Source: Macrostomum lignano (Eukaryota). Taken from it: a stretch of DNA of 64,000 nucleotides. Each line of letters opens with the position of its first letter. The stretch's first letter is position 1. This document shows positions 1,831-63,800 of the stretch, in pieces. Position numbers and translations under genes: made by a program. The DNA lies in NCBI GenBank assembly GCA_002269645.1, contig NIVC01000386.1:310001-374000 (forward strand), in the 5' to 3' direction. The notes beneath the pieces are model-generated. The model was not told the origin of the DNA, did not search any database, and saw nothing but the letters and a program-made list of their open reading frames with translations.

Positions 1831-2559
1831 GGCAAGGGAGGTTGCAAGCAGCGGGGAGAATTGGAGACGGGGAGGCTGGATGCTTTTTATGCATCTTCGG
1901 ACTCCCAACTCAGCCAATGACCACCTGGATGAATAATTCACAGTCTCCGAGAAATTTGCGAGCCATTGTGTTTGTCAGCGATGGAGGAAATGCTGGGCTG
2001 CACAGGCTTGGAGCAGAAACTGAGGCAGGCCCGCTAATGAGCAAGCAAGCCGTGGGTTGGCAGGCTTCACTAGAAAAGCTAAAAATGGTTACCTGTTGGA
2101 ATCTGCAGCAGGTGCGTCGCCTGGTTTCTAACATCTTCTCTCCGTCGCTAACGTCCTTAGACAGAAATTGCGTGCCAGAATTATGATAAATGCTCCGTCA
2201 TGGCTAAAAAACATTTCTGCCTTTACTTCCAGGAGCTTCCAATTAGTTAGGGAGAATTTTTTATAATCTTTTTTGAGATCTTCTAACTCAACCAGTTGGT
2301 AGTGCTTCAATTGCAAGGACAAAAATGTCTGCAAGTAATGGTCGACCCTACTTGAAGTAGAAAAAAGGTTTTCACTTTAAACACCAGAGACTGTGCTGTG
2401 GTCTTTCGTATACAATGGTTTCGTATACCAGCTGACTCGAATGACTGCTCATCATCGATACTTGAAAACATGTGGCACTTTTTCAAAACTGTTGTAATTG
2501 ATACGGACCGTGCCCGTTCGTGCCCGTGTGCTGATGACAGAATAGAACATTGGGTTTCA

Positions 2560-3998
2560 GAAGACAATATTCGGTGTCAGAGACAAGTATTGGGTGTCAG
2601 AGACAAGTATTGGGTGTCCGAGACAAGTATTGGGTGTCAGAGACAAGTATTGGGTGTCAGAGACAAGTATTGGGTGTCCGAGACAAGTATTGGGTGTCAG
2701 AGACAAGTATTGGGTGTCCGAGACAAGTATTGGGTGTCAGAGACAAGTATTGGGTGTCCGAGACAAGTATTGGGTGTCAGAGACAAGTATTGGGTGTCCG
2801 AGACAAGTATTGGGTGTCAGAGACAAGTATTGGGTGTCAGAGACAAGTATTGAGTGTCCGAGACAAGTATTGAGTGTCCGAGACAAGTATTGGGTGTCAG
2901 AGACAAGTATTGGGTGTCCGAAACAAGTATTGGGTGTCCGAGACAAGTATTGGGTGTCCGAGACAAGTATTGGGTGTCAGAGACAAGTATTGGGTGTCCG
3001 AGACAAGTATTGGGTGTCAGAGACAAGTATTGGGTGTCAGAGACAAGTATTGAGTGTCCGAGACAAGTATTGAGTGTCCGAGACAAGTATTGGGTGTCAG
3101 AGACAAGTATTGGGTGTCCGAAACAAGTATTGGGTGTCCGAGACAAGTATTGGGTGTCCGAGACAAGTATTGGGTGTCCGAGACAAGTATTGGGTGTCAG
3201 AGACAAGTATTGGGTGTCCGAGACAAGTATTGGGTGTCAGAGACAAGTATTGGGTGTCCGAGACAAGTATTGGGTGTCAGAGACAAGTATTGGGTGTCCG
3301 AGACAAGTATTGGGTGTCAGAGACAAGTATTGGGTGTCCGAGACAAGTATTGGGTGTCAGAGACAAGTATTGGGTGTCAGAGACAAGTATTGAGTGTCCG
3401 AGACAAGTATTGAGTGTCCGAGACAAGTATTGGGTGTCAGAGACAAGTATTGGGTGTCAGAGACAAGTATTGGGTGTCAGAGACAAGTATTGGGTGTCCG
3501 AGACAAGTATTGGGTGTCAGAGACAAGTATTGGGTGTCCGAGACAAGTATTGGGTGTCAGAGACAAGTATTGGGTGTCAGAGACAAGTATTGAGTGTCCG
3601 AGACAAGTATTGAGTGTCCGAGACAAGTATTGGGTGTCAGAGACAAGTATTGGGTGTCAGAGACAAGTATTGGGTGTCAGAGACAAGTATTGGGTGGTGT
3701 CCGAGACAAGTATTGGGTGTCAGAGACAAGTATTGGGTGTCCGAGACAAGTATTGGGTGTCAGAGACAAGTATTGGGTGTCCGAGACAAGTATTGGGTGT
3801 CAGAGACAAGTATTGGGTGTCCGAGACAAGTATTGGGTGTCAGAGACAAGTATTGGGTGTCCGAGACAAGTATTGAGTGTCCGAGACAAGTATTGGGTGT
3901 CAGAGACAAGTATTGGGTGTCAGAGACAAGTATTGGGTGTCAGAGACAAGTATTGGGTGTCAGAGACAAGTATTGGGTGTCCGAGACAAGTATTGGGT
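2560..3998. repeat. 20-bp minisatellite AGACAAGTATTGGGTGTC(A/C)G, ~72 units
   Basis: Directly visible tandem array; explains the repetitive ORFs in this interval. Confidence 0.98.
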
Positions 3999-4039
3999 AG
4001 TCAGAAGCACCACTTGGGATGCAGTACAGTGGCGGTACA

Positions 4040-4300
4040 AAAAGAGGCCGATGCAAGCGTGTCTGGAAGCCACTGCTGCGGCGCGGGTGCATCAAAAGCC
4101 TCATGGCAGGTGAATCAACAGCGTCATGGCGGGCCCGCGTGTGCATCAACAGCCTCATGGTGGGTGAATCAAAAGCCACATGGCGGGTGAATCAACAGCA
4201 TCATGGCGGGTGCATCAATAGCATCATGGCGGGTGCATTAAAAACATCATGGCGGGTGCATCAACAGCATCATGGCGGGTGCATCAATAGCATCATGGCG
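4040..4300. repeat. Degenerate ~20-bp array CATGGCGGGTGCATCAACAG
   Basis: Visible tandem copies, more regular towards 4300. Confidence 0.85.
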
Positions 4301-4789
4301 CGCACCATGGAGCGCACCTAGCCTGGTATTTGCAGCTGTGGAGTCTTAATATCGATCGGAAGTGTTCCTAAAGATACAGAATGTCAATTTCAAGAGACGC
4401 TGTAACTGGGCGGCCCCTGCACTCGGGCTGGGGTATATCTGGCGCTTGACCCCTGAATGTACAATAATTCCCTCGTTATGTCCCTATCATTCCCCCTGTG
4501 GCGTTGTCTCATTCCCCTGCTTTCCCCTGTGCCCCTGATACTGAGTTATGCCGCTTATATTAATACATATTTCCCTCTGTCAACTATAGTAGGGAGAGGA
4601 CTCTCTCCTTTTTCTCCCCCCTTAACATATTTGCGCCACCAGCTATATTCCCAATGTAATTTCCCCTGCTTATTTTCCTTCCTCGCCCGTGAGCACACCG
4701 CCTTCATGCACTCCACTTTTCCCGCGCACGACCCAACTGCTCACGCAATCCCACGATTGTTTATTCTATTTCGCGGCCAATTTCCATTT

Positions 4790-5150: not shown

Positions 5151-5336
5151 TATTGCTACTTGTAGTATTCATTCACGACTGTTGTTTTCCTGATTTGCTT
5201 TTTCCTGCAACTGCCTAGGCACTAGCCTCGTAGGTTAGTGCGCCCTACCCGTTTTTCTACCCCTTTTCTTGCATTTTCCACACGTGATCCGCGTGATAAG
5301 GCTATTTTTAGAAGCATTTCAGTGACATTTCTGATT

Positions 5337-5975
5337 GCAGACCAGTACACACTTCAACTGCAGACCAGTACACACCTAAACTGCAGACCAGTACACACCT
5401 AAACTGCAGACCAGTACACACCTAAACTGCAGACCAGTACACACCTCAACTGCAGACCAGTACACACCTCAACTGCAGACCAGTACACACCTCAACTGCA
5501 GACCAGTACACAGCCAGAGTAAAGACCAGTACACACCTAAACTGCAGACCAGTACACAGCCAGAGTAAAGACCAGTACACACCTAAACTGCAGACCAGTA
5601 CACAGCCAGAGTAAAGACCAGTACACACCTCAACTGCAGACCAGTACACAGCCAGAGTAAAGACCAGTACACACCTAAACTGCAGACCAGTACACAGCCA
5701 GAGTAAAGACCAGTACACAGCTAAACTGCAGACCAGTACACAGCCAGAGTAAAGACCAGTACACAGCTACACTGCAGACCAGTACACAGCTAAACTGCAG
5801 ACCAGTACACAGCCAGAGTAAAGACCAGTACACGGCCAGAGTAAAGACCAGTACACAGCTAAACTGCAGACCAGTACACAGCCAGAGTAAAGACCAGTAC
5901 ACAGCTACACTGCAGACCAGTACACAGCCAGAGTAAAGACCAGTACACAGCTAAACTGCAGATCAGTACACAGCC
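5337..5975. repeat. Composite 23-bp minisatellite (CAGACCAGTACACACCTAAACTG and CCAGTACACAGCCAGAGTAAAGA units)
   Basis: Two related 23-bp units, first homogeneous and then interspersed. Confidence 0.95.
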
Positions 5976-6288
5976 AACTGCTCCAACTCAGTCTGCTCGC
6001 ATCTACAGAACCTGAGTTGCTGAGATGAGCAGCCCCAGAGTAGTGTAAAATAAGCTGAAATTCAGAGTCGCGGTTAGCATTTGAATTTTTGGGATGCTCG
6101 AGGAAAAAGGGCCAGCTGGCGTTGTTTATTCGTGTCTGTCTTAGACCGGGACTTGCGTCAGGGATCAATTTGTCAAGTCTCTCAGATAAACCTCTTGAAT
6201 GAAGGATTTGCGCTGTTATTCAATCTTCAGGTGCGATCAGATTCTCAGAAGTTCGAACTGTACTGCTGGCTTCCATGGGGCCACCGCT

Positions 6289-9790: not shown

Positions 9791-10277
9791 TTAGAATACC
9801 TTGAGCAAATGGCCCGCACCACTATGGGAGAGCTGAATATTCAGATTAGGTTTTTGGTCTTTAATGTACATGGATTCAAGTATGTTGAGCCTAAAATCAG
9901 TTCTATACCGATCAATAATTTTAAACTGCTGAGTTTGCTCAATTTCGCAACAACTGTTGCAACAGAGCAGGTGGTCTTGGATAGCCGACCTTTTTAACCA
10001 ATGCTCTCTGACTCTGGTGTACAGGTGCCTTTTAGTTTTACCTATATAGGTAATGTTCTGGTCAACAGAACAAGAGAACTTATACACAACACTTGCCGCC
10101 AGAGCAAGAGGAACATGGGATTTCAGTCTACTAACGTATTGGCCGACCTTAGCAGTGCGGAAAACAATCTTAATAGGCGTGTTAAAGAATTTACGGAAGC
10201 TTTTCTCAATTTTCTTCTTCAACAGGTTAGAGCAGTTGCCATAGAAAGGCAAGACCATGGTCGGGCAAGTTTTGGAT
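9791..10277 (-). pseudogene. Penelope-like GIY-YIG endonuclease C-terminal fragment
   Basis: Open frame from KTCPTMVLPFYG to stop; 5' RT portion missing. Confidence 0.85.
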
Positions 10278-10753
10278 GATTCGTTGTTTGTTGCTCTGAT
10301 TCGTTGTCTGTTGCTCTGCGTCTGATTCGTTGTTTGTTGCACAGGGCCTACACGGTTTGCAGCTCTTGGACCAATCTCAACATTGAAGTTAACAATCTCA
10401 CCAAAATTCTGAGAATGAATCAATTTCCCAAGAATCTCATTTGCAGTGAAATCAATAGATTCATCTCTAATAAAATGACGAAGAAACCGAGTTTTGCTTC
10501 TGATAAGGATGTGTTAAAAACTTGCCCGACCATGGTCTTGCCTTTCTATGGCAACTGCTCTAACCTGTTGAAGAAGAAAATTGAGAAAAGCTTCCGTAAA
10601 TTCTTTAACACGCCTATTAAGATTGTTTTCCGCACTGCTAAGGTCGGCCAATACGTTAGTAGACTGAAATCCCATGTTCCTCTTGCTCTGGCGGCAAGTG
10701 TTGTGTATAAGTTCTCTTGTTCTGTTGACCAGAACATTACCAATATAGGTAAA

Positions 10754-10956
10754 ACTAAGGCTGCGGTTTGCGCTAGGCTTGCCTTGAGCAAACCGGCTTT
10801 AGTGCCCAAGTGCGCTGCGTCTGTGGTGCGCCCCCCCCCCCGCCGCGTGTGTACGTTCTGTGTTGTTTAGGTGGGCGCCCACCCCTCCGCCGGTGGGGGG
10901 GGTATTTTACTCCAGCCGCGCTGCTGCGTTGGCAGTGTTTTCGCGCAGTTCTTTTT
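10754..10956 (+). repeat. Ngaro repeat A1 (second copy A2 at 14805-15005)
   Basis: ACTAAGGCTGCGG...CAGTTCTTTTT is repeated; by eye the differences are in C and G homopolymer lengths. Confidence 0.95.
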
Positions 10957-10986
10957 GCACTGAACTCTAATGCCAATCGCTGAATC

Positions 10987-12027
10987 ATGGCTAGCACTGA
11001 CACTGTCAAGTCACTGCGCGAGAGGTTGCAATGCCTAGGCCTGCCAACCCACGGAAACAAAATGGAGCTATTGGAGAGGCTGTCTGCACACATCGACAGC
11101 GTTACATAACTGCAGGACGGCGATGATCGCAGACCTTCACTGACCCCGGAGACGACTCGCTCGAAGAACATTCAAGATTTGCTGGCGGCTGCGGCGGACG
11201 GCGAAGCTGCGACGGCGGCGTCAGAGTCTGGAGCGGCTGGCGGCCTGGACGACGAGGTGCGGGAAGTCGAGCAGCGTATACGGCTGCTGAAACTGCGCAA
11301 GGAAGAAGCCGAGCTGCAGGCCGAGGTTAACCTATTGCAGCGGCACCGGGCTCCCTCAACTAACCATGGTGAGTTGTTTGGTCACGTGATATCAGGGAGT
11401 GAGTCAGCTAGACCAGCGATCCCGCATGGTACCTACCGCATCCCCGAATTCATCTGTAAACGCAAGCAGCAGGAAGCGGGTATCATCCAGTCTGTTGATC
11501 GGACAGGTAAAGTTGTCTACAAAGTGAAGGAGGCAGCGTTAGAATCTCTGACCTTTGGCGACTGGATTGCTGGCAATGCGCGCATAATGCTGAAGATGCT
11601 GGATGATGGAGCTCTAGTTAAGAGCGGTGAAGGAGAATGTCCTGATGTTTCTGAGCTCCGAGACTACCTGCGCTTTAATATTCGGATAGGAGAGCTTTTT
11701 GACCTTGGTTTCGAGAAGACCCGCGTCATGAGATTCGACGATGAGTGCAGAATAAGCCAGACAGCTACTACCTCTTGGGAAGCCAGAGCCTCCGACATGG
11801 GTCTGGTGGCCGCCTACCTGATGGCACCACAGAGGGGTCCGACTGCCTCAGAGAGACTGTCGAAGCGGAGCCAGCAGCCTGTGTGCTTTGATTTCAATAA
11901 AGAAGCCGGTTGCAGCAGAAGAAACTGCAAGTTTGCTCATCAATGCCGGAGGTACGGTCTAGGCCACTCAGAAGCGGCTGCCCACCGGGATGGCGTGGGC
12001 ATCGAGACGGCCAGGCCCTCGCACTGA
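10987..12027 (+). CDS. Ngaro gag-like ORF1: N-terminal SAP-like domain, coiled coil, C-terminal CCCH finger; in-frame TAA at 11107-11109
   Basis: MASTDTVKSLRERLQCLGLPTHGNKMELLERL; CFDFNKEAGCSRRNCKFAHQC; ATG 10987 is in frame with ORF 11179-12027. Confidence 0.75.
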
Positions 12028-13731
12028 CTGAGTGCCCGTAGTGATTTTAACGTCCCCGTTTTATCTACAGATTTGAGGTTCGTGGAGTGGGAGAAGGAGC
12101 TGTTGTGTATTGATTTGCCTATGGATCGGAAGAAGTTTATTCTCGATGGTGTTGCATATGGTTTTCGTATAACTAACAAAACTGTTTCTGACTGCAAGTC
12201 AATTGATGTTAACAACTACCATTCTGTCAATGTGCATTTCGAGGCTGTGGAAAAGCAGATTAAGAAGGAGCTCGGGTGTGGCAGGTATCGCGAATGCCCG
12301 ACCGGCTGGCGTCCGCAAGTGGTCAGTGCTCTCGGAGCCTTGCCCAAGGTTGGTGGCCGTGTGCGCCTGATTCACGACTGCAGTCGGCCCGTGAATAACT
12401 CTGCGAACTCCAGATGGGTCAGCCAGGAGAGGCTGCGCTTCACGTGTGCCGACAACTTTGCGAGGAAGCTTTCTAGAGGCTGCTTTATGACTAAGGTGGA
12501 TCTCAGCGAAGCGTACCGCGCCTGTGGTGTTCACCCCGATGATTTCAGCCGGACAGGGATCAAGTTCCGCTTCGGCGAGTCCAAGGCAGCCACCTACATG
12601 TATGACACCCGTTTGCCGTTTGGCGCTGCAGCTTCTTTTACCTGTTTTCACCATCTTAGCAATGCTGTGCGTTTAATGATGGTGCGCAGAGGCTTTGTGG
12701 GCACCGAGTCCTACCTGGACGATTTCGCCTTCGCGGGCTCGCGTGACGAATGCCAGCGGTTTTACGACGAGCTGACAGGCCTGTTGACGCGGCTGGGCTT
12801 CACTGTAAACTGGGCAAAGTGTCAGACACCAACTCAGCGCATGACCTTCCTTGGTGTCGAGTTCGATACAGTTGCCGGCATCAAGAGGTTGCCCGAGGAG
12901 AAGGCGAGGAACCTCGCTGAGTTGTTAGCAACTGAAAGGAGCAAAACCAGGATCAGCAAGTGGGCTTTGCAACGCTTGATCGGCAAGCTTGGCTGGGCAG
13001 CACAGGTGATTCGCAAAGGAAAAACTTTTCTGCGTGATTTGATCGAAGTATGCAACGCGATGCGGCCTGACGAGAGAATTAAAGTCAGCTTACAGCTCTG
13101 TGACCAATTCTGCTGGTGGATTGTAGCGCTGGAGTCGGCCCGGTGGGTGGAGCTCTGGCCTGTTTTCAAGAACCATGTGGCGATCGAGTCCGATGCATGT
13201 GGCAGAGGCGGGGCAGCGGTGCTTCGAAGGTCAGATGGCAGTTGGGACTGGTGCTACATCAATTGGAGCCAGGATGGGGCCGGAGTATTCGCTGATCTGC
13301 CAATCAACTACAAAGAGGCGGTGGCTCCTTTGGTGTCAATCCTGCCCTGGAGGGAAGAGCTGAAAGGCTGTAACGTTAGCGTTTATTGTGACAACATGGC
13401 GGCCTGTCATATTATCAATAATGGCACTTCGAGGTGTCCTGTCGTGCAGAGGCTACTGCAAACGATTGCGTTGATGTCTTTACGGCATGGTCTGAGTGTG
13501 CGAGCCTTTCATGTGCCGGGAGAGTTTCAAATTCTCGCCGATGCAGCGTCTCGGTTGCACGAGCGCAGTCAGTTGATTAATTTTTTATTTCGCTGCTATG
13601 GCAACTTGTGCCCGTTTGCTTTGCAATCAATGCATCGACATGCTTTCTGCCCTGCCTCTGCCCACTTTCTTCATTTTCAGGCCGTCCAGCTGCGCCAGAC
13701 TCTCTCAGCCGCCGGGCCGCGTCGCTGCTAG
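12028..13731 (+). CDS. Ngaro reverse transcriptase / RNase H, uninterrupted
   Basis: RLIHDCS, KVDLSEAYR, RLPFG, YLDDF, FLGVEFD; RH ESDAC, INYKEA, YCDNMAA, ILADAASR; same frame as gag, immediately after its TGA. Confidence 0.95.
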   Translation: MSARSDFNVPVLSTDLRFVEWEKELLCIDLPMDRKKFILDGVAYGFRITNKTVSDCKSIDVNNYHSVNVHFEAVEKQIKKELGCGRYRECPTGWRPQVVSALGALPKVGGRVRLIHDCSRPVNNSANSRWVSQERLRFTCADNFARKLSRGCFMTKVDLSEAYRACGVHPDDFSRTGIKFRFGESKAATYMYDTRLPFGAAASFTCFHHLSNAVRLMMVRRGFVGTESYLDDFAFAGSRDECQRFYDELTGLLTRLGFTVNWAKCQTPTQRMTFLGVEFDTVAGIKRLPEEKARNLAELLATERSKTRISKWALQRLIGKLGWAAQVIRKGKTFLRDLIEVCNAMRPDERIKVSLQLCDQFCWWIVALESARWVELWPVFKNHVAIESDACGRGGAAVLRRSDGSWDWCYINWSQDGAGVFADLPINYKEAVAPLVSILPWREELKGCNVSVYCDNMAACHIINNGTSRCPVVQRLLQTIALMSLRHGLSVRAFHVPGEFQILADAASRLHERSQLINFLFRCYGNLCPFALQSMHRHAFCPASAHFLHFQAVQLRQTLSAAGPRRC

Positions 13732-14666
13732 GCGTCTCTTATGCACCACGGTCAAGGCAGGCGGTGGCAAGGCACATCCGTGAGTGGCTAGCTTACTGCA
13801 AGCAGACCCGCTGCAGTCCTGTATCCTGTCCGCTGAACAGCCTGCTCGACTACCTGGCCAGCCTAGTCGGGACGCGTTTGCGTGCGTACGGCAGCGTTGC
13901 TTCTGTCGCCAGCTCGCTGTCCGTTTAGTTTCGCGTCAACTCTGCACCAGACCTGACGAAGCATGCCGCAACGACTCTCCTCCTGCGAGGTGCCAAGCGA
14001 GAGCTGGGACTTCGGGTGTCGAGAAAACGACCAGTATCGCCGCTCATGTTGTCGGAGATTCATCAGCGAGTCAGTCGTTCTGACGGGCTTCAGCTGGCAT
14101 GCTGGGCAGTCGCCATCTGCTGTTGGTGGGGCATGCTCCGAAAATCCAGCGTGATACCGACTTCGGGAAAAGGTCCGGCACGTGTGCGCTGCGCTGACAT
14201 CTTTCGACACCCGCGAGGTCTGATCTTGCGCCTGGAGCAAGGGAAGACTCTCCAGTTCAAAGAGCGGGTGCACCAGGTGCTTCTACCAAGGCTAGTGAGG
14301 CGGACGTCGCTGTGCCCGGTGTTAGCAATCGAGCAGCACGCAAGATTCAATAATCTGCAATCGGCTGATGCGCCTCTGTTCACTTATCGCGACGCCGGAG
14401 GCAACCAGCGGCTGCTGACAGGCAGGCAGCTCGATCGCTTCCTAGCGGACAAGCTAGGGGCTGCGGGCTTCAGGCGTGAGCACTTCTCAGCCCACAGCCT
14501 CCGCCGTGGCGGCGCGACCTGGGCCTCGGTGTTGGGTGTGCCGGTGCCCGACATCATGCGGATCGGTGACTGGAAGAGCGACTCAGTGCAGCGGTATCTC
14601 CCGCAGTCGCAGCAGGGCTTGGCAGCTTCCGTCGTGTTTGCTAGAGGTGTGGGATCCCTCGTTTGA
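13608..14666 (+). CDS. Tyrosine recombinase ORF3 with an in-frame TAG at 13926-13928; overlaps the end of RT/RH
   Basis: Catalytic motifs MLRKSS (R), SAHSLRRGGAT (HxxR), GDWKS (W), VQRYL (Y); ORFs 13608-13928 and 14016-14666 are one frame; no ATG before the TAG. Confidence 0.9.
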
Positions 14667-14744
14667 CGTTGGCATCAGCTTTACGATGTTCCGTTTCCTT
14701 CAATTTTTTCTTTCGCGCGCTTTCCCGTTGTTGTTTCGGCTTTG

Positions 14745-14809
14745 GAGGCCTCGTTACTGCTTTCGCTTTCGCCAACATCGCGTATTCGTGTTTTGCTTTG
14801 GGGCACTAA
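14745..14809 (+). repeat. Ngaro repeat B1 (second copy B2 at 15055-15119)
   Basis: 65-bp GAGGCCTCG...GGGGCACTAA duplicated with one mismatch; AATAAA motifs lie between A2 and B2. Confidence 0.95.
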
Positions 14810-15222
14810 GGCTGCGGTTTGCGCTAGGCTTGCCTTGAGCAAACCGGCTTTAGTGCCCAAGTGCGCTGCGTCTGTGGTGCGCCCCCCCGCCGCGTGTGTA
14901 CGTTCTGTGTTGTTTAGGTGGGCGCCCACCCCTCCGCCGGTGGGGGGGGGGTATTTTACTCCAGCCGCGCTGCTGCGTTGGCAGTGTTTTCGCGCAGTTC
15001 TTTTTTTTCTTCTTCTTTTATCCTTATTCTTTTAATCAATAAAATATAAATAAAGAGGCCTCGTTACTGCTTTCGCTTTCGCCAACATCGCGTATTCGTT
15101 TTTTGCTTTGGGGCACTAAAAGGCACCTGTACACCAGAGTCAAATTCGTCACATGCGGTTTGTGGTACGTGACCAGTATGAACCGTAGGCCATAAGGTAC
15201 TGGTGAAATTTCTTCACCGCAA

Positions 15223-15398: not shown

Positions 15399-16864
15399 CT
15401 TCACCGCAAAAATTATCGCTACTCATTCCTTCTCTTTTTGTGAGTTGTTTCTTTCGGCCTTGGACTGGCCTCTAATTTCACAGCAGATTGGCTTCTCTGA
15501 ATCCTGCAAAATGTGCGAAAGCACTGCGCCTACGCTGTAGTATGATGCATCGCAGCATTAGCATGAACAACCAACTCTTTGCTTGGGGTCATAGTGAACC
15601 AACACTCGGTTATAAGTCAGCTGATTTCTAAGGAACAAATGAATAAATGACGCTCGTCAGTCCATCTAAACTCAGCGTCTTTCTGAAGCAGCGCATTTAG
15701 AGACGCCAGGATGGCGGACAGGCCTCTGATGAATTTCTTGTAGTAATTTATCTTATCAGACCAACTAGCGAGCGAACCTCCGGGATGCTAGTTGGCCTTG
15801 GGGCTTTAGTGATGGCTTTCATGATTCGTGATGGCTGATGCATGCCGTTCTCGTCAATCACATGCTTAAAGAATTCACTCTCGCGCTTCATGAACTCACA
15901 TTTATTCTTGTTTAGATTAATTCGATGGTTCTTCAGCAGCTTCAAAACATCTTTCAGTGTCGTTTTAAGCTCATACTGAGATGCGGCACTAAAAACAATA
16001 TCATATTGCGTCCGTATCACTCAAAAGCTTGTCTGTGGCCTCCTGGAAAAGAGCTGAAGAGTTTGCGAGACCCGTAGCCAGTCTGTTGTATTCATGTAGG
16101 CTCATATGTGTGTTGATTGTGGTGTATTTACGACTCCTCTTGCAGTTCCAGCTAAAGAAAGGCTTGAGATTTTGTGAAGGATTTGAAACTGAGTCGAGTA
16201 AACAGTTCGTCTGTTCTAACCACCGGATAAATTTCCACCTCGAGGGCTGGGTTTATGGTCTTCTTATAGTCTGCACATATTCGCATTGACTTTCCATCTA
16301 TCTTTTTTTCCATCCCCCGGCATAGTTTAGAATTTTATTCTATAATATTCTTGAGCTCGTGAGCCGCATTCAGGGAGAGGATCCCCCCTTGGCATTCCTC
16401 AAGCATATTTTCGGGTCAGATGGTCAAGTTGTGTTATCCAATCACGGCCCAGCAGATTCTGCTCCGTGCCGCCGTCAGTGACTACAACTTCCAGCAAATA
16501 TCGCAGTGTCGTTGATCACAACTTAAACCATAGCCTCTCCAAGCAGGAAAACCTGCTCATTACAATAGGAGGTAAGAACTAAGGTCGTGCGCTCTGCGCC
16601 AGTGTCCACTTTGAATTTAATGTGACCATTGACTCGCAATGTCTCCGAGAGAGGCTTAAACCGAGCTTTCTGTGTGCTTCTTCCTCAAACCTGGCCATTT
16701 TTTGAAGGCGGCTGTCTATCTGCAGCGCCAGCAGGCTGCTGTTGATGACGCCATTCTGGCCGTCTCGATGCCAGAGGCCGTGTAGCCTGGTCGGCTATCA
16801 ATGCTCTGACGGGGTGAAAGCGGCGCATTCCGCTAAACTTGGGCAGGTGACTTTGCGGACGAGC

Positions 16865-18421
16865 GCAGGAACGAGCTATGTGAGTTCTTCGCCACCATTG
16901 CTAGCGCGCCGCGACCCACGCTGCCCTGCTGCCGCCGGAGATGCCGTTGCCGGCAGAGGAGAGCTAGCCTAGCACCAGTCAGCACAGCCAACGTTGTGAG
17001 GCTCGCCCAACAGTCACCGGGCGGGAAAGCGCTAGGTCCGGACGAGGTGCCCATCGAGGCGCTGCGCATCCACTGTGTGTCCAGTGAGGTCGCCAGAGTG
17101 ATGAATCGCGAGCTCTTCGGTGAGGAAGCACCCAACGAATGGACCACTGCGCGCATCGTCGCAGTTCCTAAGAAGCCGGGCGCCACGAGGCTTGAGGAGC
17201 ATCGAGGTATCTGCCTTCAGTCCTGCGCTGCGAATTTGTTCAATCGGTACCTGCGTCCTGAGCAGAACGGCTTCCGGCCCTATCGCGGCACAGTGACGCA
17301 GATCCTGGCTCTTCGGCGAGTCATCGAGGAAGCACGGATACGCCAGTCGATCCTGATTGTTATCTTCATAGATTTCAAGAAGGCATTCGACTCGGGCGTC
17401 AGGTCTGTGCTCACAAAGGTGCTCCGTGCGTACAATGTGCTGATTTCCGCCATCATGGCGATCTACCTTGATACGAAAGCTTCTGTTTCAACACCGGACG
17501 GCCTATCGGACTTCTTTGAGGCATCCTCCGGTGTGCTTCAGGGAGATACGCTTGCACCATTCCTGTTCGTTCTGGTGCTTGACTGGGTGCTGCGGACCGC
17601 TCTTCCTACCAACGACGACGGCTTTCTGTTGCGGCGATGCGTGATTCGACGTCAACCAGAGAGGCGGCTCAGCGTGCTCGGCTACGCCGACAATCTCGCC
17701 CTGCTGTCCTCAACTGTCAGCGACAATTGGCCAAGATAGTTGCTGTTTCGGCGAGTGCCAGTCTAGTGGTCAACACGCAGAAGACCGTCATGCTCTGCGT
17801 GCCCGACGACATCGAGGCTGTGATTTTGTGCCGAGGCGCTGATGGACAGGCGACAGAGCTTCCGCGTTGTCAGCAGTTCATCTACCTCGGCGGTCTGGTT
17901 CCCATCTTCCGCGATTATTTGCGGCGTCGCCGCGGGTTATCCTGGGCTGTATTTCGTTATGTGAGGGCAGCCCTGCAGTCCGAGGCCTTACCTGACCGCC
18001 AGAGGGCGGAGTTGTTTCAGGCGGTGATCGAGAACGTCCTGCTGTACAACGCCGAGACCTAGACGCTGACGAAGTCGCTCGAACAACAAGTTGACGCGGT
18101 GCAAGCTGGCCTGCTGCGCGCCAATTTTAAGATCGGCTACGAGCGTGTGACCAACGCGGCTTTGTATCACCGCGCCTGCCTGGTCCGTCCAAGCGACCTG
18201 TTGCACCGTCGGCGACTCCATCTGTCAGGCCACATCATCCGCGGCGTGTTGTACTGCCCGGAGCCGGTGCAGGAGACACCCTACCGGCGATGGCAGGCGT
18301 GCACTCGGCGTTTCGTCGACTGCCTGCTGGCTGACGCCGGCGCCCCGGATTCGGCCGGTGGCGTGGCGTTCATTCGCGACCTGGCCTTGAGGCGCAGCCT
18401 GGGACGCTAACTGTTGTTGTT
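16865..18421 (+). mobile_element. 5'-truncated, frameshifted RTE-clade LINE
   Basis: KALGPD, QNGFRP, FIDFKKAFDS, GVLQGDTLAPFLF, YADN (mutated YADD), YLGG, LYNAET; (GTT)n tail. Confidence 0.9.
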
Positions 18422-19604
18422 GGGTTCGAACATCAAATATTCGCCAATTTCCGCGATGAGCTCGACTCCCTCAATCACCTCTTTAGTGATTGATTTGGCA
18501 ATGAAATACTGTTCCAGTCGCTCTTCGTATCTTTCAGGTCGTGCTGGATCGAATGTGCTCATTTTCGAAGCACTGTTTAGTTTTGTTTTCCTGGTCCTCT
18601 GGCTGCAGCAGACAGAAAATCGGCAATCGAAACGAGTTCCCAGCTCGCATTCTGTTCAGTCCAAATCTGGGCACTGACTGGCAGCTGCAGTTTTTTGCCG
18701 AAGCCGGTTTTGAATTCAAATGCAGCAGCCGCTTGCTGTAGTCGCGCGTTGCCTTACTGCTGTGGGTCCGATAGACTCTTTATTTAATAGAAATCAAGCG
18801 TGCCATCTTCTCTGGCTTCTGCCATTTCAAAATCTGTTGTTTCGGCGCACAAAAGCAAGAGGAGTCTGAATGCCATTTCTGAGCAGCAGGGAGTGCTGTA
18901 TCGCGACCTAAGGCTGTCTCGTACTTCAAGTAATTTGGACCAGTACCCGCCGTCAGAACTCTACTGCTGCCAATAACTACTGCTGCAACCAGCACCATCA
19001 ACGCGTCGCAATTCAGAGTTGCTAGTCATGAGAACAAGTATGGAACTAATTTGGGTCCAGTTCAAAATTCGACTTTCACGTACTGCAGTTATTTTTATCT
19101 TTGGTTATACAATAATCGGTTGTTCATCTTGGTCATCTAAGACAAAGTCTTAGCAATTCCGACGCTCTAGCAAACTACTATGGAAGCTTCTTGCTCCAGT
19201 GCAGTGCGTGATCTAGTGATCCTGTGATGTCACAGGCTGCTCGATTCTGCTTTACTGGCTGGCTCGAGTCAGTTTTACCAGAGCTGCTGCGGCACAGCCG
19301 CCGATAAAATTAATTTTATAAATAAGACGGCCGTCTGCCCTGAGGCAGTCGCATAATGTTTCCACCTGTTCTGATGCTTTGGTGCCTTTACTAGACCCAT
19401 CGAGGACCTTCCCGCATGAAGTTACGATACGTGGCCGGTGTAAGGATCAAATAATGGTTTTGTTCTGTACAGTGTCAGCAAAAACCAATGGGAAGCACCT
19501 CTGGCAGCTCTGCAGCCGTAGCTTCTTACAGTGCGAATGCGTACTCACCATTGGCTGAGGTCCAGTCCGTGAGGCCCAGTCCGTGACAACATGCTAGTGT
19601 TGGT

Positions 19605-20202
19605 GGTGGTGGTGGCGGTGATGTGGTGGTGGTGGTGGTGCAGGTGGTGGTGGTGCAGGTGGTGGTGGTGCAGGTGGTGGTGGTGGTGGTGCAGGTGGTG
19701 GTGGTGCAGGTGGTGGTGCTGGTGGTGGTGATGCAGGTGGTGGTGCAGGTGGTGGTGGTGGTGGTGGTGCAGGTGGTGGTCGTGGTGCAGGTGGTGGTGG
19801 TGATGGTGCAGGTGGTGGTGGTGGTGGTGCAGGTGGTGGTCGTGGTGCAGGTGGTGGTGGTGCAGGTGGTTGTGGTGCAGGTGGTGGTGGTGCAGGTGGT
19901 GGTGCAGGTGGTGGTGCAGGTGGTGGTGGTGCAGGTGGTAGTGGTGCAGGTGGTGGTGGTGCAGGTGGTGGTGGTGGTGGTGCAGGTGGTGGTGGTGCAG
20001 GTGGTGGTGCAGGTGGTGGTGGTGGTGGTGCAGGTGGTGGTGGTGCAGGTGGTGGTGGTGGTGGTGCAGGTGGTGGTGGTGCAGGTGGTGGTGGTGGTGG
20101 TGGTGCAGGTGGTGGTCGTGGTGCAGGTGGTGGTGGTGATGGTGCAGGTGGTGGTGGTGGTGGTGCAGGTGGTGGTGGTGGTGGTGCAGGTGGTGGTGGT
20201 GT
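19605..20202. repeat. (GGT)n-GCA compound microsatellite, ~600 bp
   Basis: Visible; generates poly-Pro/Thr/His/Val ORFs. Confidence 0.97.
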
Positions 20203-20913
20203 GCATCCAACGGGCATGGGGCTTTCTGGGAGGACTGCAGTGCAGAGCTTAGAGTTGGCTAGAGAAGTTTTCCACATTCTGATTGTGATAACTTGTTAAG
20301 CGAGGCAGAAGTTTGGAATTGCAGGAGTGAGTAAAAGGTGCTCGCTTGAGAGCTAGGCTGTTCACATTTATTATTTAGCACTGAGGTGGTGGGTGCAGAC
20401 AGATTCAAACGCGCGCATGGGGTGGGGTGGAATAAAATACAATCTCTAAGCCGATCAATAACAACTCCACTGCTAGTGAGTCAACACTACAGTGCATGCA
20501 ACCTATAGCAAAGTTCATCGTGTCACTATGTCACACTGATTAACGGAACCCAAAGAGTAGCGATTTAGTGCCTTGCAATATTGATGTTATCAACAATGCG
20601 CCACCTTCGAGTCTATTCGTTATAACTAAATCTGTGGATGTCAGCCAGTCAGTCAGTAAGCTGGCATTCGACTACATGTACAAGAGAAAACGCTGTTAAT
20701 CCACTGGTTGCTTTTGATTAACAACTTAGCCAGCTTGGTGGGACAGGCGTCAGTAGAGGGCAATCAGACATTGGGAAAAGCGAGAATTCTGCACCGCGGA
20801 AAATGTGCAGTTGCACTCATGCAGATGATTTTTTGTTTTGAATCACTTTACTATGTACAGTAGCTCGTAAATGTTGTTAATTCAGCCAGTTAGATCATTC
20901 TTAGAATTGGCGC

Positions 20914-22164: not shown

Positions 22165-23135
22165 CAGGCTGGCCCAGCAACTGAGGATCTGAGAGGCTGG
22201 CCCAGCAACTGAGGATCTGAGAGGCTGGCCCAGCAACTGAGGATCTGAGAGGCTGGCCCAGCAACTGAGGATCTGAGAGGCTGGCTCAGCAACTGAGAAT
22301 CTGAGAGGCTGGCTCAGCAACTGAGGATCTGAGAGGCTGGCCCAGCAACTGAGGATCTGAGAGGCTGGCCCAGCAACTGAGGATCTGAGAGGCTGGCCCA
22401 GCAACTGAGAATCTGAGAGGCTGGCTCAGCAACTGAGGATCTGAGAGGCTGGCTCAGCAACTGAGGATCTGAGAGGCTGGCCCAGCAACTGAGAATCTGA
22501 GAGGCTGGCCCAGCAACTGAGGATCTGGGAGGCTGGCCCAGCAACTGAGGATCTGGGAGGCTGGCTCAGCAACTGAGGATCTGAGAGGCTGGCTCAGCAA
22601 CTGAGGATCTGAGAGGCTGGCCCAGCAACTGAGGATCTGAGAGGCTGGCCCAGCAACTGAGGATCTGAGAGGCTGGCCCAGCAACTGAGGATCTGAGAGG
22701 CTGGCCCAGCAACTGAGAATCTGAGAGGCTGGCTCAGCAACTGAGGATCTGAGAGGCTGGCTCAGCAACTGAGGATCTGAGAGGCTGGCCCAGCAACTGA
22801 GAATCTGAGAGGCTGGCCCAGCAACTGAGGATCTGGGAGGCTGGCCCAGCAACTGAGGATCTGGGAGGCTGGCTCAGCAACTGAGGATCTGAGAGGCTGG
22901 CTCAGCAACTGAGGATCTGAGAGGCTGGCTCAGCAACTGAGGATCTGAGAGGCTGGCTCAGCAACTGAGGATCTGAGAGGCTGGCCCAGCAACTGAGGAT
23001 CTGAGAGGCTGGCTCAGCAACTGAGAATCTGAGAGGCTGGCCCAGCAACTGAGGATCTGAGAGGCTGGCCCAGCAACTGAGGATCTGAGAGGCTGGCCCA
23101 GCAACTGAGGATCTGAGAGGCTGGCTCAGCAACTG
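22165..23135. repeat. 28-bp minisatellite GGCTGGCCCAGCAACTGAGGATCTGAGA
   Basis: Tandem array; reverse complement of the unit at 49055-50275. Confidence 0.97.
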
Positions 23136-23869
23136 AAGATCGGAGAAGGAAGTCAGAAGAGTAAGAGATTTGAAAAAATGAAGCAACTCGAAACTCTTAA
23201 GAGCAGTGCTGCAGATTGAAGCAAACGCAGTGTTTAAAACAGGTAAACAAAACATGTAGACAGCGCGCATAGCACTCAATGTATTTACTGTCAAAACATG
23301 TGACAGCAATTATATTGTTCTGATATTAGTCATTTAAACGTGCGGAACGAGCAGAAACAATCGACCTGGCTCGCTGTCAATCTAAATGATGCAAGATATC
23401 ACAGGCTGCTGTACACAGCTGTCCGGCGGTTTGGCACTTCCTGTGCTGTGCAGCTGCACTGGGCTGGTGCCAATGATCGCACAATAAAATTAGTGGCGAC
23501 TTTGTACAAAATTATTTCCAACCGGAAACTGGGCGGGAAAATGCGCGCGCAGATCGAACAGCGAATACGAAAGCTACTGCAACAGGTACAGGTACAGGTA
23601 AAAATAATCTTTCCAGGAATCGGCTGACAATTCTTGAAGCCACAGGGTCAGAGAAATCGCTGGGGGGGGGGGAATTGTGTAAGAAAGGTCGCAGACTCAA
23701 AGTATATCAAACTACCAATAAATTTGCTAATCGGCTGTTGATTGAAACAAGCGCAATCTAGCTGAGCTGGGACAGTTTAAAGGAAGCTGAGAAAAGCATG
23801 GAAGCACAGTGTGAATACTGCTGTGGCTCACTGAATTCAGTGAGAACTGGATGAGCATGAGCAGTATTA

Positions 23870-27100: not shown

Positions 27101-30100
27101 GATCAGGAAGACGATCAGAGGGGATTTGAGGATCAGGAAGACGATCAGAGGGGATTTGAGGATCAGGGAGACGATTAGAGGGGATTTAAGGATCAGGAAG
27201 AAAATCAGAGGGGATTTGAGGATCAGGAAGAAAATCAGAGGGGATTTGAGGATCAGGGAGGTGATCAGGGGGGACACTAATTCTAATATCGATCAGAATC
27301 AGTGAAAAATGCTAAAAGCCGCTCACTTTCGATAGTGCCCGGCCAGCAGCAGCACCCGGCAGATCAGCAGGTGGCGGTGCAGGTCGCAGGCGGCGGGCTC
27401 GGCGGCCTCTAGCAGGGCGCAGTAGCGCTCGGCCATGGAGCTGTAGTCCCCGCACTGGGCGGCGTCCCGCCACAGCCGCAGGAGGCGGTCGCTGGGGTCG
27501 GGCGCGTCAAGCTGGTGAAAAGTTTCCAGCACGTCCCAGCGGCAGAGGAAATCTTCAAGGCGGCCGAGGGCACCGCTGGCCAAAGCGGCGGGCGGGAACT
27601 CGTCCAGGGCCCGGTCCAGGCCCGCGAGCTCCGGCCGCTCGAACTGATCGGCCAGCCGGGACAGCCAGAACTGGGCGCTGGGCTGCTGCAGGGAGCTGGG
27701 GGGGGGCGGCGGGTGCGCTGGACTGGATTCATATATGCGAAACCTTCGGAATCACCCGGCCGTTTCTATTGGCAACACACACATGTAAGTCCTGTTGGCT
27801 GAGAGCAGTCACGTGACTATTATTCTGTCCAATAGCGACTTACGTGTGTGTGTGTTGCCAATAGAAACGGCCGGGTAAATCCTAGGTTGCACCCAGGCCC
27901 ACGCATGACTGGATTGCCACTATTTGTGAATAGGGCGGAAACTGTGGGTGAATGAGGCGGAAACTGGAGGGTGAATTGGGGGCGGAAACTGTGGGTGAAT
28001 GGGGCGGAAACTGGAGGCTGAATAGGGCGGAAACTGTGGGTGAATGGGGCGGAAACTGGAGGGTGAATGGGGTGGAAGGTGAGGTTCAATGGGGCGGAAG
28101 GTGAGGTTGAATGGGGCGGAATCTGTGGGTGAATGGGCGGAAACTGGTGGGTGAATGGGGCGGAAAATGAAAAAAAAATGGGGCGGAAAATGAAAAATGA
28201 ATGGGGCGGAAGGTGAGGTTGAATGGGGCGGAAAAGCGGGCTGAAGGGGCGGAAACTGGAGGGTGAATGGAGCGGAAAAGCGGGCTGATGGGGTGGAAAC
28301 TGGAGGGTGAATGGGGCGGAAGGTGAGATTGAATGGGGCGGAAAAGTGGGCTGAAGGGGCGGAAACTGACCGAGCAGCCTTTCGCAGCGCCGGATGGCGA
28401 AACGCCAGCCAGCGGTCAGGCTCAGTTCCTATTGGCGCCGGCGGCGCTAACAAGGGCGCCAAAGCGCCGAGCACGCCGGCCCAAAGCCGAGGCGACCAGC
28501 TCCGACGATAGGCGGGCGAATCGATACGATCGGCGCCGCTGGCGAGCCCCGCCGCGCTGCCGGCCTTCTCCGACGCCTCGACGCCGTCCTTCTCGGCGAA
28601 GGGGCCTCCAGGCGCGGTCAGCGGGCCGCTGCTCAGCAGGCCGACGGCTTCGGACTCGAAGAGGCCGCCATGGGCTGAGTTGGCCAGCAGGCACAGCAGC
28701 GCCTCGGCGACTGGCCCGGACTTTCCATCGCCAGAGTCGAGTTTGGCCGCGTCCTCCACGGCGTCGGCGACAACGGAGCGGCACAGCTCGGACAGCGAGT
28801 CGCAGTCGGCCAGGCGCTGGCACTGGCGCCGGCGGCTGCGAGCGGCGCTCAGCTGGAGGAACATCGCCTGGTCGGAGCAGCGGGCCAGCCGGGCCACCTC
28901 GGCGGCTGACAGCGGCGGCTGGGGACCCACCTGAGGAGATTATGGATCAGGGACTAGATGGATCAGAGACTAGATGGATCAGGGACTAGATAGATCAGGG
29001 ACTAGATAGATCAGGGACTAGATAGATCAGGGACTAGATGGATCAGGGACTAGATGGATCAGGGACTAGATGGATCAGGGACTAGATGGATCAGAGAATG
29101 AGGGATTAAATATTTGGGATTAGAGACAAGAAGTTCGAGATTGGGGATCACTCTAAAAGAAAGTTTAGCTCAACAACGCGGAAGAGTCCGCGGCGAGCTC
29201 ACCGCATCCGCAGATGCTGCGGCAACGATGAGGCGTCTCTCCGGCTCGAACAGCGGCAGCACCAGCTCGCAGTCGATGCGCCCGCCGCCCACGTCACCGC
29301 CGCTGTTGCCGCCGCCGCCGCTGGAGACGCCGACATCGTCCCGGCTGCGCAGGGTCTTGGCGGGCTCGCAGTCTGGCGGGCAGGAGATGAGCACGCGAAC
29401 GAACGGGGCCAGGTTGCTGGGCAGCCAGTTGAGCAGGCGGGCAGCGCCGGAGTCGCCGCGCAGCTGGTCGCACCCAGGCAGGATGAGGTGCAGCGGCCGG
29501 CGGGGACCGGAGAACTCCAGCAGGAAGGCGACCGCATCGGCCAGCCGGGAGACGGGGGCGTCTTCGCGCAGCAGGTCGGAGCAGAACGGGGCCTGCGGGT
29601 GGGAGCGGCAGAAGTCACGTGATCTGCCTCTCTACTCAATTATCCCCCAAGAGTACCCGGTACTGATCCCGTGTGTGCGCCCAGTCCCTATACCTGATAG
29701 GCCAGAAGCTCCGGCGGCAGCGGAGGCGTCAGCGGGCAGCCGCTGGGTGCGGAGGCGGCAGCCGCGGCGGAGGCAGCCGCAGCCCAGTCGACTCCGTCAA
29801 GCAGCTCGGCAAGCAGGCGGATGAGCAGCCAGCGCACGTCGCCGCTCTTGTAGTCGGCGCAGGGCGAGTGGTACAGCAGCACGGAGCCGCTGGCGGACGC
29901 CGCCTCAGGCATGGACGGATCCCGCCGTCGTCCGCGCAGCCATCGGCGAAGCTGGCAGGCGACGCTGGCGAGCACGCAGGCTTTGCCTTCGCCCGGCTCG
30001 CCGACCAGCAGCACCGGCGAGTTGCCAGAGGCCGCGGCGGCGAGTCTCCCGCTGTTGTCCTCTGCTGCCCGGGCCTCGCCGTCATCGTCGTCTGTGTCGC

Positions 30101-33100
30101 TGCCGGGTTGGTGCAGCGTCGGGATGATCCATTGGCGCGGAAGCGGCGGTGGCAGCGGCGGAGCCCGAGTCGGCGACATCGTCATGAGGTGGGCGGCACT
30201 TTCGATGGGAGCACCGCCGGACCTGGGGATGCTAAGATTTAGGGCGGGTGCCAGAAGTCTTGTTGGGATGTCAGATGCCTTGGTAGGATGTCAGATGCCT
30301 TGTTGGGATGTCAGATGCCTTGGTAGGATGTCAGATGCCTTGTTGGGATGTCAGATGCCTTGGTGGGATGTCAGATGCCTTGGTGGGATGTCAGATGCCT
30401 TGGTGGGATGTCAGATGCCTTGGTGGGATGTCAGATGTCTTTTTGGGATGTCAGATGTCTTGTTGGGATGTCAGATGCCTTGGTGGGATGTCAGATGTCT
30501 TGTTGGGATGTCAGATGCCTTGGTGGGATGTCAGATGCCTTGGTAGGATGTCAGATGCCTTGGTGGGATGTCAGATGTCTTTTTGGGATGTCAGATGCCT
30601 TGGTGGGATGTCAGATGCCTTGGTGGGATGTCAGATGTCTTTTTGGGATGTCAGATGCCTTGGTGGGATGTCAGATGTCTTGTTGGGATGTCAGATGTCC
30701 TGGTGGGAGGTCAGATGTCTTGGTTGGATGTCAGATGTCTTGGCGAGGTGTGAGATGTCTTAGTGGGATGTCAGATGTCCTGGTGGGATGTCAGATGTCT
30801 TGGTGGGATGTCATGTGAGATGCCTTGATAGGATAACTGCTGCATTGTTGGGATGCCAGGTGCTTTGATAGGGTGTCAGGCACTTTGATAGGGTGTCAGG
30901 CACTTTGATAGGGTTTCAGGCACTTTGATAGGGTTTCAGGCACTTTGATAGGGTGTCAGGCACTTTGATATGATGTCAGGGGCACGGTTAGTGTGCCAGA
31001 TACTCTGACGGTCACCTGGGCGCCGGATAGTCGGGGCAGAGCCGGCGCAGCAGGCGGTTCACCAGGCCGTTCCTGGTGCGCGGGTGCCGCTCGGCCGACC
31101 GCCTGTCGCAATCGGTCGCCTGCGATTCGGCCAGGCCGGCCAAAACCCAGCGGCAGCGGCGGACGCGAAGCCGGAGGGCGGCCCAGTGCCGCAACGAGTC
31201 GGCCGGACTTGAGCTGTCCGATTCCTCCGGCCGGACAGGCAGAAGGCGGTTGTTCTGCAGTCAGCCATGAGAGCAACGTTTGCTTAGTCTCCGTAGCTGG
31301 ATCACGTGATTTTTATTCCGCTCACCTACTAGAGATTATGAAACTAAGAGATCTCCACATAAACTAAACTTCCAAGATTTTTAAGTCTGGAATGCCCTAG
31401 TCACGTGACTAAGTTCTAATTACCCCCCCCCCCTACAACACCTGATGAAATACCAAATTACCGCAAATCACGTGACGTGACATCCCAGCCAGCCGCTCAC
31501 GTGACCCTGTTCAACTGCAAATCACGTGACACCCCAGCCAGCCGCTCACGTGACCCTGTTCAACTGCAAATCACGTGACACCCCAGCCAGCCGCTCACGT
31601 GACCCTGTTCCCGCAAATCACGTGACACCCCAGCCAGCATCTCACGTGACCTTTTTGAACTGCAAATCACGTGACAACCCAGCCAGCCGCTCACGTGACC
31701 CTGTTGCCACAAATCCCGCGACACACCCGTGACATACGTGATAATACTGCAGCAGCAGGTCGCCGGCGGAAGCGCCGCCAGCGAATCTCCGCTGGGCGAA
31801 TTTCCTCGCCCTCGGCGACAACTCGGCGGCGTCGTCAACAACGCAGACGGCGTCTTCGAGAAGCGGATGGTGCATGGCGGACAGGGCGGCCGCGGCCGAC
31901 CGGCTTAGACGGAAGTGGCGGGCGAACTCGCTAGCGTAGGCCGGCTGTCCGGGAAACTCGTGCAGGATGCCCACGCCCTCGTGGACGAGATTCACGCACA
32001 GCGTCGTCCTGTCGCCATTCGGGTCCCCGACGCTGGCGTCATCGCGGAGGCGGGCCTCAAGACCGTTGGTTCCGCCGCGGTCACCAATTTGGACCTCGTC
32101 GTGGTCCCCGTTGCATTCTTCCAGGCTTCGAGATTTCGTTCCCTGTAGGTGTTTTTCAGCTGGCTTGCTGACTATTCTGATAGTGAATATCTAGGCTTGC
32201 GGCGCCAGCTGAGGGATTGAGGCCGAGGGTTCGCGGCGCCAGCTGAGGGACTGAGGTTTAGTGGGGCCAGCTGAGGGACTGAGGGTTAGCGGCGCCAACT
32301 GAGGGACTGAGGGGAGGGACTGAGGGTTAGTGGCGCCAACTGAGGGACTGAGGGTTAGCGGCGCCAGCTGAGGACTGAGGTTTAGTGGCGCCAGCTGAGG
32401 GATTGAGGGTTAGCGGCGCCAGCTGAGGACTGAGGTTTAGTGGCGCCAGCTGAGGGACTGAGGTTTAGTGGCGCCAGCTGAGGGATTATTATTTTTATTA
32501 GAGGCAGGGGGGTTGTGTGCACCCTGGCGCGACATAGGCACACAACCGGCGAGAGGCATTACTGCCCATTCCGCCGACTCCCCTGAGCAGGCATACAAGC
32601 GCGCGGATACGTACGCAGGCACACACTCACACAGGAGTGTACAGCGGCCCTAACTTTATTTTATCGTTAGGCATGTACACTTCACTGCGCCTTGGGGGGT
32701 TGGCTCTCAAGGCCGTTAATTGCACGAGCAGAGCCAAGCCGAGATTCCAATTCAGTCCCAAATTAATGTGACTGCACTTGGAATCGAGCCTGGGTCGCTG
32801 GCACACCAGAGCAGCTGCGCTACCGCTGGGCTACGGCCCCCCTCAGCTGAGGGATTGAGGGTTCGCGGTGCCAGCTGAGGGACTGAGGGTTAGCGGCGCC
32901 AGCTGAGGTACTGAGTGTTCGCGGCGCCAGCTGAGGGACTGAGGGTTAGCGGCGCTAACTGAGGGACTGAGGGTTTGTGGGGCCAACTGAGGGACTGAAG
33001 TTAAGTGGCACCAAGGATATGAAATGATTGCTATAAACCTCAATAGTGTAGACTGACTTACCCAAAAGATTTCTTCAGTGGACACAGATAGGCCAGGAAA

Positions 33101-50275: not shown

Positions 50276-50322
50276 AACCGGGCCTGAGGATTAGTCCCTC
50301 ACTGAGCACTCAGCAAAGAAGT

Positions 50323-58876: not shown

Positions 58877-63667
<4,791 letters not shown>

Positions 63668-63685
<18 letters not shown>

Positions 63686-63800
63686 GTAGGTGGCCGGGCA
63701 CTTACCATGGACAATCGGACAGGTAGGTGGCCGGTCACTTGGCCATGGACAATCGGACGGGTAGGTGGCCGGTCGCTTGGCCATGGACAATCGGACAGTT
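63668..63800. repeat. 37-38-bp repeat of exon end plus donor CATGGACAATCGGACAG|GTAGGTGGCCGG, 3-4 copies
   Basis: Visible at the cadherin exon 3 boundary. Confidence 0.9.

Follow-up and report, generated by a model that had tools for sequence, protein, structure and literature searches.

Here, a retrotransposon of Macrostomum lignano is described in which gag and the reverse transcriptase (RT) gene occupy one reading frame and are parted by a single TGA-CTG. The feature is real, and readthrough of the stop to give a Gag-RT fusion is, judged from the sequence, the likely mechanism. A wider model is offered tentatively, at somewhat under an even chance: Ngaro elements would make Gag-RT by recoding, with at least two past switches from -1 frameshifting to UGA readthrough, and would in addition produce a spliced Gag(N-terminus)-recombinase protein, all from one promoter.

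The element spans positions 10755-15119 of the window (the whole stretch of DNA analysed, 64,000 nucleotides of contig NIVC01000386.1) in the order A1, gag, RT/RNase H, tyrosine recombinase, B1, A2, B2 (Table 1). Its gag matches the SAP domain (PF02037, E 4.5e-7) and is 39-54% identical to six gag homologues and to the gag part of P0003; the Cys/His zinc-finger region has no Pfam match. The stop-to-stop frame behind the TGA (567 aa) matches RVT_1 in Pfam (E 4e-10) and ends about 90 residues past an RNase H-like match (RT_RNaseH, E 0.0015) that is below the Pfam cut-off. The recombinase frame matches PF00589 at E 6e-4, again below the cut-off, and its motifs align with those of five relatives. 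No Pfam match to a methyltransferase domain was obtained in the element at E 0.1. By this predicted content of gag, RT/RNase H and recombinase without methyltransferase, and by an A1-ORFs-B1-A2-B2 arrangement with an internal repeat pair after the recombinase, the element agrees with the structural definition of Ngaro (order DIRS) given in the available text of PMC4157794 and PMC9210276. Ngaro elements are described with overlapping ORFs in different frames, however, whereas gag and RT of the window element share one frame without overlap.

Table 1. Coordinates in the window of the retrotransposon's repeats, reading frames and candidate translation and splice sites
Feature	Position	Strand	Basis or remark
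Split direct repeat A1 (left end)	10755..10956	+	Compared with A2
Gag ORF: SAP, coiled-coil-like stretch, core, C-terminal Cys/His fingers	10987..12027	+	Early TAA
Premature TAA in gag (copy decay), then CTG	11107..11109	+	P0003 and P0176 stop-free there
Candidate donor, intron start 11369, phase 1 in gag	11366..11374	+	Rank 1/274 GT sites; prediction
Cys/His zinc-finger region, gag C-terminus	11884..11967	+	Translation and alignment with homologues
Candidate readthrough site, gag stop TGA + CTG	12025..12030	+	Same layout in L009:2171-2176
RT/RNase H frame, in frame with gag	12028..13731	+	Conserved Trp 12088-12090; ATG 12121
Candidate acceptor in RT frame, phase 1	12051..12070	+	Pyrimidine tract, AG 12069-12070; rank 2/295; prediction
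Tyrosine recombinase frame, -1 relative to RT	13581..14666	+	Broken by TAG 13926-13928
Candidate acceptor, recombinase start, phase 1	13661..13680	+	AG 13679-13680; rank 1/295; prediction
Split direct repeat B1	14745..14809	+	1 mismatch in 65 relative to B2
Split direct repeat A2	14806..15005	+	Repeat comparison with A1
Split direct repeat B2 (right end)	15055..15119	+	CTAA at element end

The copy is read as a recent, clean insertion of the recombinase type because A1 and A2 show no substitution over 204 alignment columns (with six gap columns in homopolymer runs), B1 and B2 are nearly identical, and the target site, CTAA, marks the two element ends as well as the point where B1 meets A2. When the flanks are joined through a single CTAA, they match 10009-10060 in reverse complement. 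The element lies within the inverted part of a GIY-YIG-bearing (Penelope-like) element (9791-10758, 15116-15142), in the other arm of which the target site is unoccupied and CTAA stands once. The inserted copy would so have been defective already, and the available text of PMC7192593 describes the RT of DIRS-1 as acting in trans. No other copy was found within the 64-kb window, where the element matches itself and its own flank only, and searches of the plasmid and phage collections with the RT were empty at E 1e-20.

RT-bearing frames at 38372-40848 were rejected as another copy; they belong to a decayed retrotransposon of the LTR type, whose RT, RNase H and DDE integrase lie in broken frames. 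A further RT fragment lies at 16837-17739, a JmjC-domain exon at 46485-47825 and a long cadherin-domain frame at 60025-63726. The window also holds many minisatellite arrays (near 2400-3800, 5200-6075, 19500-20300, 30100-30900, 50400-53500 and 62650-63400), and a 28-nt array occurs twice, inverted and about 26 kb apart (22166-23146 and 49055-50276).

The sequence-only reading had gag end at CAC TGA (12025-12027), the RT frame continue without a further stop to 13731 and its first ATG fall at 12121, and each of these points was borne out. The codons are TCG CAC TGA CTG AGT GCC, the RT frame is open from CTG until the TAG at 13729-13731, and ATG 12121 is codon 32 of that frame and the first ATG downstream of the TGA. 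After the TGA the -1 frame closes within 4 codons and the +1 frame within 16, and the last 15 codons of gag contain no slippery heptamer of the form X XXY YYZ. The UGA-C context alone is unremarkable, since TGA+C accounts for 20 and TGA+CT for 4 of the 109 stop triplets in the element (all frames, sense strand); the junction stands above chance because a second element, L009, repeats both the frame and the TGA-CT context. Two further in-frame stops, which the sequence-only reading had missed, interrupt this copy, the TAA in gag and the TAG in the recombinase frame. A variant genetic code was set aside, as three different stop codons interrupt the frames of the copy.

As far as proteins can tell, the TGA is the natural end of gag. 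Five gag homologues stop 9-16 residues past the last aligned histidine, as against 13 in the window gag, and the sixth gag-only homologue, P0162, leaves the frame ahead of the fingers and is uninformative on the gag end. Because five of the six end at the same place, the stop does not appear to be a copy-specific break in a fused ORF, a possibility that had been raised against readthrough and that the homologues did not bear out. Among 80 matches to the read-through query, only P0003 spans gag and RT, and in this gene model the junction is skipped. The two closest informative gags, P0113 and P0130, group with that of the window element (SH-aLRT 93, quick tree) and are without the KN ending encoded by A AAA AAC, which is present in the more distant gags P0176, P0190 and P0232; the closest relatives (P0113, P0130/P0002) are known here from proteins alone. 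At the other side of the junction, the segment ahead of ATG 12121 is conserved, as had been supposed, with Trp21 and Leu25 shared by at least 90% of the 31 RT proteins aligned. The ATG column itself holds Arg, Glu, Glu and Glu in P0002, P0003, P0004 and P0082, respectively (by eye). Use of this ATG, a second possibility raised against readthrough, fares badly, as the codon is unconserved and lies behind conserved residues, and it is an unlikely RT start.

Translational fusion of Gag and RT is taken as the pattern of the family because a slippery heptamer goes together with an RT in the -1 frame in eight of nine related loci. The nine (L001-L009) were confirmed among 13 pattern matches from one scan of prokaryotic genome records. 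Together with P0031, they are Ngaro-like eukaryotic retrotransposons that sit on short contigs in the records of several bacterial MAGs and are apparently contamination there; from their content, L001-L009 would be eukaryotic elements binned into prokaryotic assemblies. In the eight, gag ends on the heptamer or one codon past it, and the heptamer is A AAA AAC in six (L003-L008) and C CCA AAA in two (L001-L002); they represent about three lineages, not eight independent cases. These heptamers, for example L003:707-716 and L006:1663-1672, are clear candidates for the signal of a -1 frameshift that yields Gag-RT in Ngaro elements, and the relatives presumably use such a frameshift at the end of gag. 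The peptide motif KK[LPHQR] was rejected as a frameshift census since it is too loose; upstream of the conserved Trp, 9 of 42 RT-frame proteins have it, and in two of the nine it falls within gag sequence.

The ninth locus, L009, has the layout of the window element. Its junction is GCC TGA CTC with RT in frame, and the conserved Trp lies 54 nt past the stop, compared with 60 nt in the window element. L009 has no A/U slippery site, its upstream heptamers are G/C runs only, and its -1 frame is closed; TGA+C makes up 17 and TGA+CT 4 of its 105 stop triplets. The two elements without an A AAA AAC or C CCA AAA site thus share an RT in frame 0 that follows TGA-CT, and the UGA-C prediction for the window element had been made independently of L009. 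The junction is regarded as a recoding site because relatives are of the frameshift type at this point and L009 repeats the in-frame TGA-CT. L009 is itself decayed, its gag being interrupted by one stop and its RT by a frame break, and since both in-frame elements are decayed single copies a copy-specific indel is possible. It is also in tandem: positions 1-554 are the final part of another, nearly identical recombinase gene, and its own recombinase is at 3757-4740.

The RT of L009 is about 40% identical to that of the window element, and a quick tree joining L009 and P0148 to the window element's four-member clade was rejected (p-AU 0.002). P0005, on the other side, falls inside a wider clade with the window element (support 98-100%), and its RT-frame peptide KKL fits a -1 site. 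All trees are quick trees with only unnamed relatives and gene models as members, and the nearest named relatives of the window element are Macrostomum lignano gene models. Because L009 is a separate lineage and because of where P0005 is placed, the simplest reading, from an unrooted tree and two decayed copies, is that the in-frame layout arose twice from a frameshifting ancestor. The switch would then have run from frameshift to readthrough.

UGAC is a leaky stop context (0.3-5%) according to the available text of PMC3542737. Folding of the 3' context, suggested along with the sequence-only reading, revealed no significant stimulatory structure: z after the TGA is +1.3, +0.7 and +2.0 for 60, 90 and 130 nt, and -0.1 and -1.8 for 200 and 260 nt. 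A predicted stem pairing +7 with +250 has a z of only -1.8 and changes partner with the length folded. In the window element, a search for simple H-type pseudoknots found none, and no long-range duplex emerged, 95% of background windows pairing equally well or better. Local folding, simple pseudoknot and long-range duplex searches were also without significant result for L009 and for L001-L008. The tests are weak, because they equally missed any stimulator behind eight slippery sites. Rfam gave no match at the junction and one match inside gag (E 0.29) that was taken as chance; selenocysteine decoding has no support, the Rfam search having found no SECIS.

The junction resembles known systems in part. 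In the gammaretrovirus MuLV, too, gag and the RT gene are parted by a single in-frame stop and a low-level fusion protein is made, but the signal there is UAG-G with an 8-nt spacer and a pseudoknot (PMC3542737, available text), whereas the window element has UGA-CUG with no structure found, and has neither protease nor DDE integrase; the gammaretroviral (type III) combination of UAG, purine-rich spacer and pseudoknot is not found in it. Type II readthrough, in alphaviruses and others, takes place at UGA-CGG or UGA-CUA, usually with an extended stem-loop, which begins about 8 nt past the stop. The window element and L009 share UGA followed by CU, but the third base is G in the former (CUG) and C in the latter (CUC) in place of CUA or CGG, so that only the UGA-C minimum is present, and the one candidate for an extended stem-loop in the window element is the +7/+250 stem described above. 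The Candida albicans retrotransposon Tca2 likewise has an in-frame UGA between gag and pol, although it is an LTR element with a predicted pseudoknot, and its gag-UGA-pol junction alone gave no readthrough in yeast (both from the available text of PMC2194720). By analogy, Tca2 warns that an in-frame gag-UGA-pol arrangement need not read through on its own.

The proposal that RT is made as a Gag-RT readthrough fusion is therefore divided in its fate. Its recoding part stands, as fusion of the recoding type at exactly this point is the family rule and L009 is alike; its readthrough part is weakened by the missing 3' structure, by a context other than UGA-CUA or UGA-CGG, and by an in-frame splice route (11369/12070) that had been overlooked. 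That the stop is read through to make Gag-RT is given slightly better than an even chance. Most ribosomes would terminate at the gag UGA and release Gag, while a small fraction would decode UGA-C with a near-cognate tRNA and produce a Gag-RT/RNase H fusion. Readthrough would in this way replace the -1 frameshift of the relatives at the same point, giving the same fusion at a low ratio.

A somewhat unlikely alternative is that splicing, not recoding, connects the two genes. Joining of donor 11369 (or 11507) to acceptor 12070 would remove the gag core together with the stop and yield an in-frame SAP/coiled-coil-RT protein; the same donor would also serve acceptor 13680, and the in-frame TGA-C would be a coincidence. 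TGAC is the core of a branch-point motif. Both sites rank high (Table 1) and share phase 1, the donor looks conserved across the family, and acceptor 12070 enters the RT frame upstream of Leu16 and Trp21, so a spliced product would keep Leu16, Trp21 and Leu25 and would need neither an ATG nor a slippery site. In copia, splicing sets the gag/pol ratio (PMC2194720, available text). However, a top-10 phase-1 acceptor in the same stretch is also found in two of the eight frameshift-type loci (rank 4 in L005, at the position equal to 12070, and rank 7 in L002), which indicates that the peptide motif yields such sites by chance. L009 is left unexplained, as none of its acceptors fits its top donor (best rank 28/173, phase 0), and on these two grounds chance is a fair account of acceptor 12070. 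Furthermore, no protein joining the gag N-terminus to RT here was noticed among the matches inspected, the gene model P0083 joining gag and RT elsewhere, and the sites were scored with a generic matrix that was not trained on the host. Readthrough of the stop and splicing into 12071 can coexist.

It is considerably less probable that RT is initiated separately, whether by termination-reinitiation, by non-AUG initiation at the CUG, or from ATG 12121 on an internal or trans-spliced transcript. Macrostomum does have spliced-leader trans-splicing, and a CUG lies directly 3' of the stop in the window element, but the corresponding codon in L009 is CTC, which is not a start codon. Reinitiation can use non-AUG codons (PMC3542737) and the Tca2 junction holds a minor promoter (PMC2194720), according to the available text of each; against this, the TURBS motif TGGGA is absent within 120 nt upstream in both the window element and L009, and ATG 12121 has the poor conservation and position given above. 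Least probable is that decay created the junction, either through a nonsense mutation within a fused ORF or through an indel of one base that moved RT from -1 to frame 0, for although this copy has two other in-frame stops, one of them (TAA) also followed by CTG, and L009 is decayed too, gag homologues stop at the same place, the closest gags are equally without KN, the one match in 80 that covers gag and RT is a gene model skipping the junction, no slippery heptamer is left in the last 15 gag codons, and A1/A2 are without substitution.

Readthrough at the gag stop would account for RT, and the third gene appears to be served differently. Two elements have the recombinase frame at -1 relative to RT and six have it at +1, so a fixed -1 frameshift cannot serve it, and the candidate sites suggest that the recombinase is made from a spliced RNA in which the N-terminal part of gag is fused to the recombinase frame. 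A candidate phase-1 acceptor is present at the recombinase start in all eight elements that have a recombinase frame (window element, L001, L003-L006, L008, L009), with ranks of 1, 1, 3, 6, 2, 4, 2 and 2 among 173-310 AG sites by the same generic, host-untrained matrix. The top predicted donor of the sense strand falls within gag, and there in phase 1, in all 10 elements examined and coincides in seven with the glycine codon just 5' of the gag core; in L001 and L002 the glycine-codon donor ranks second. Absolute donor scores are unexceptional, the best minus-strand GT outscoring the gag donor in three of the ten. One of 109 recombinase matches, P0324, has a gag N-terminus, but it was rejected as a spliced product and is read as a deletion, since the contig it comes from is a long genomic one and the joint coincides with neither of the predicted sites. 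A splice-fed recombinase differs from what has been put forward for Ngaro, as it runs against the programmed frameshifting proposed for this gene by Poulter and Butler 2015, in the wording quoted in PMC13003380.

Readthrough between gag and the RT gene is already known from MuLV, and an in-frame stop from Tca2. For Ngaro or DIRS elements, no report of readthrough is contained in the available text of PMC8547959, PMC6681497, PMC3783388, PMC5009743, PMC12440569, PMC2632668, PMC11572971 or bioRxiv 10.1101/2021.04.08.439009, and an earlier mention may exist in Goodwin and Poulter 2004 or in Poulter and Butler 2015.

ORFs 2 and 3 of tyrosine-recombinase retrotransposons often have no usable start codon, and how they are translated is apparently untested in the literature as far as its available text goes, frameshifting having been proposed for the third ORF. 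Here, exact candidate sites are named, namely, at the end of gag, a slippery heptamer or UGA-C and, for the recombinase, a donor with its acceptor. If the proposed model is true, gene models and ORF calls for Ngaro elements start at the wrong place. Furthermore, Ngaro elements would repeat, in a distant group of retroelements, the retroviral split between frameshifting and readthrough, and would provide a natural series for the replacement of one recoding mode by another.
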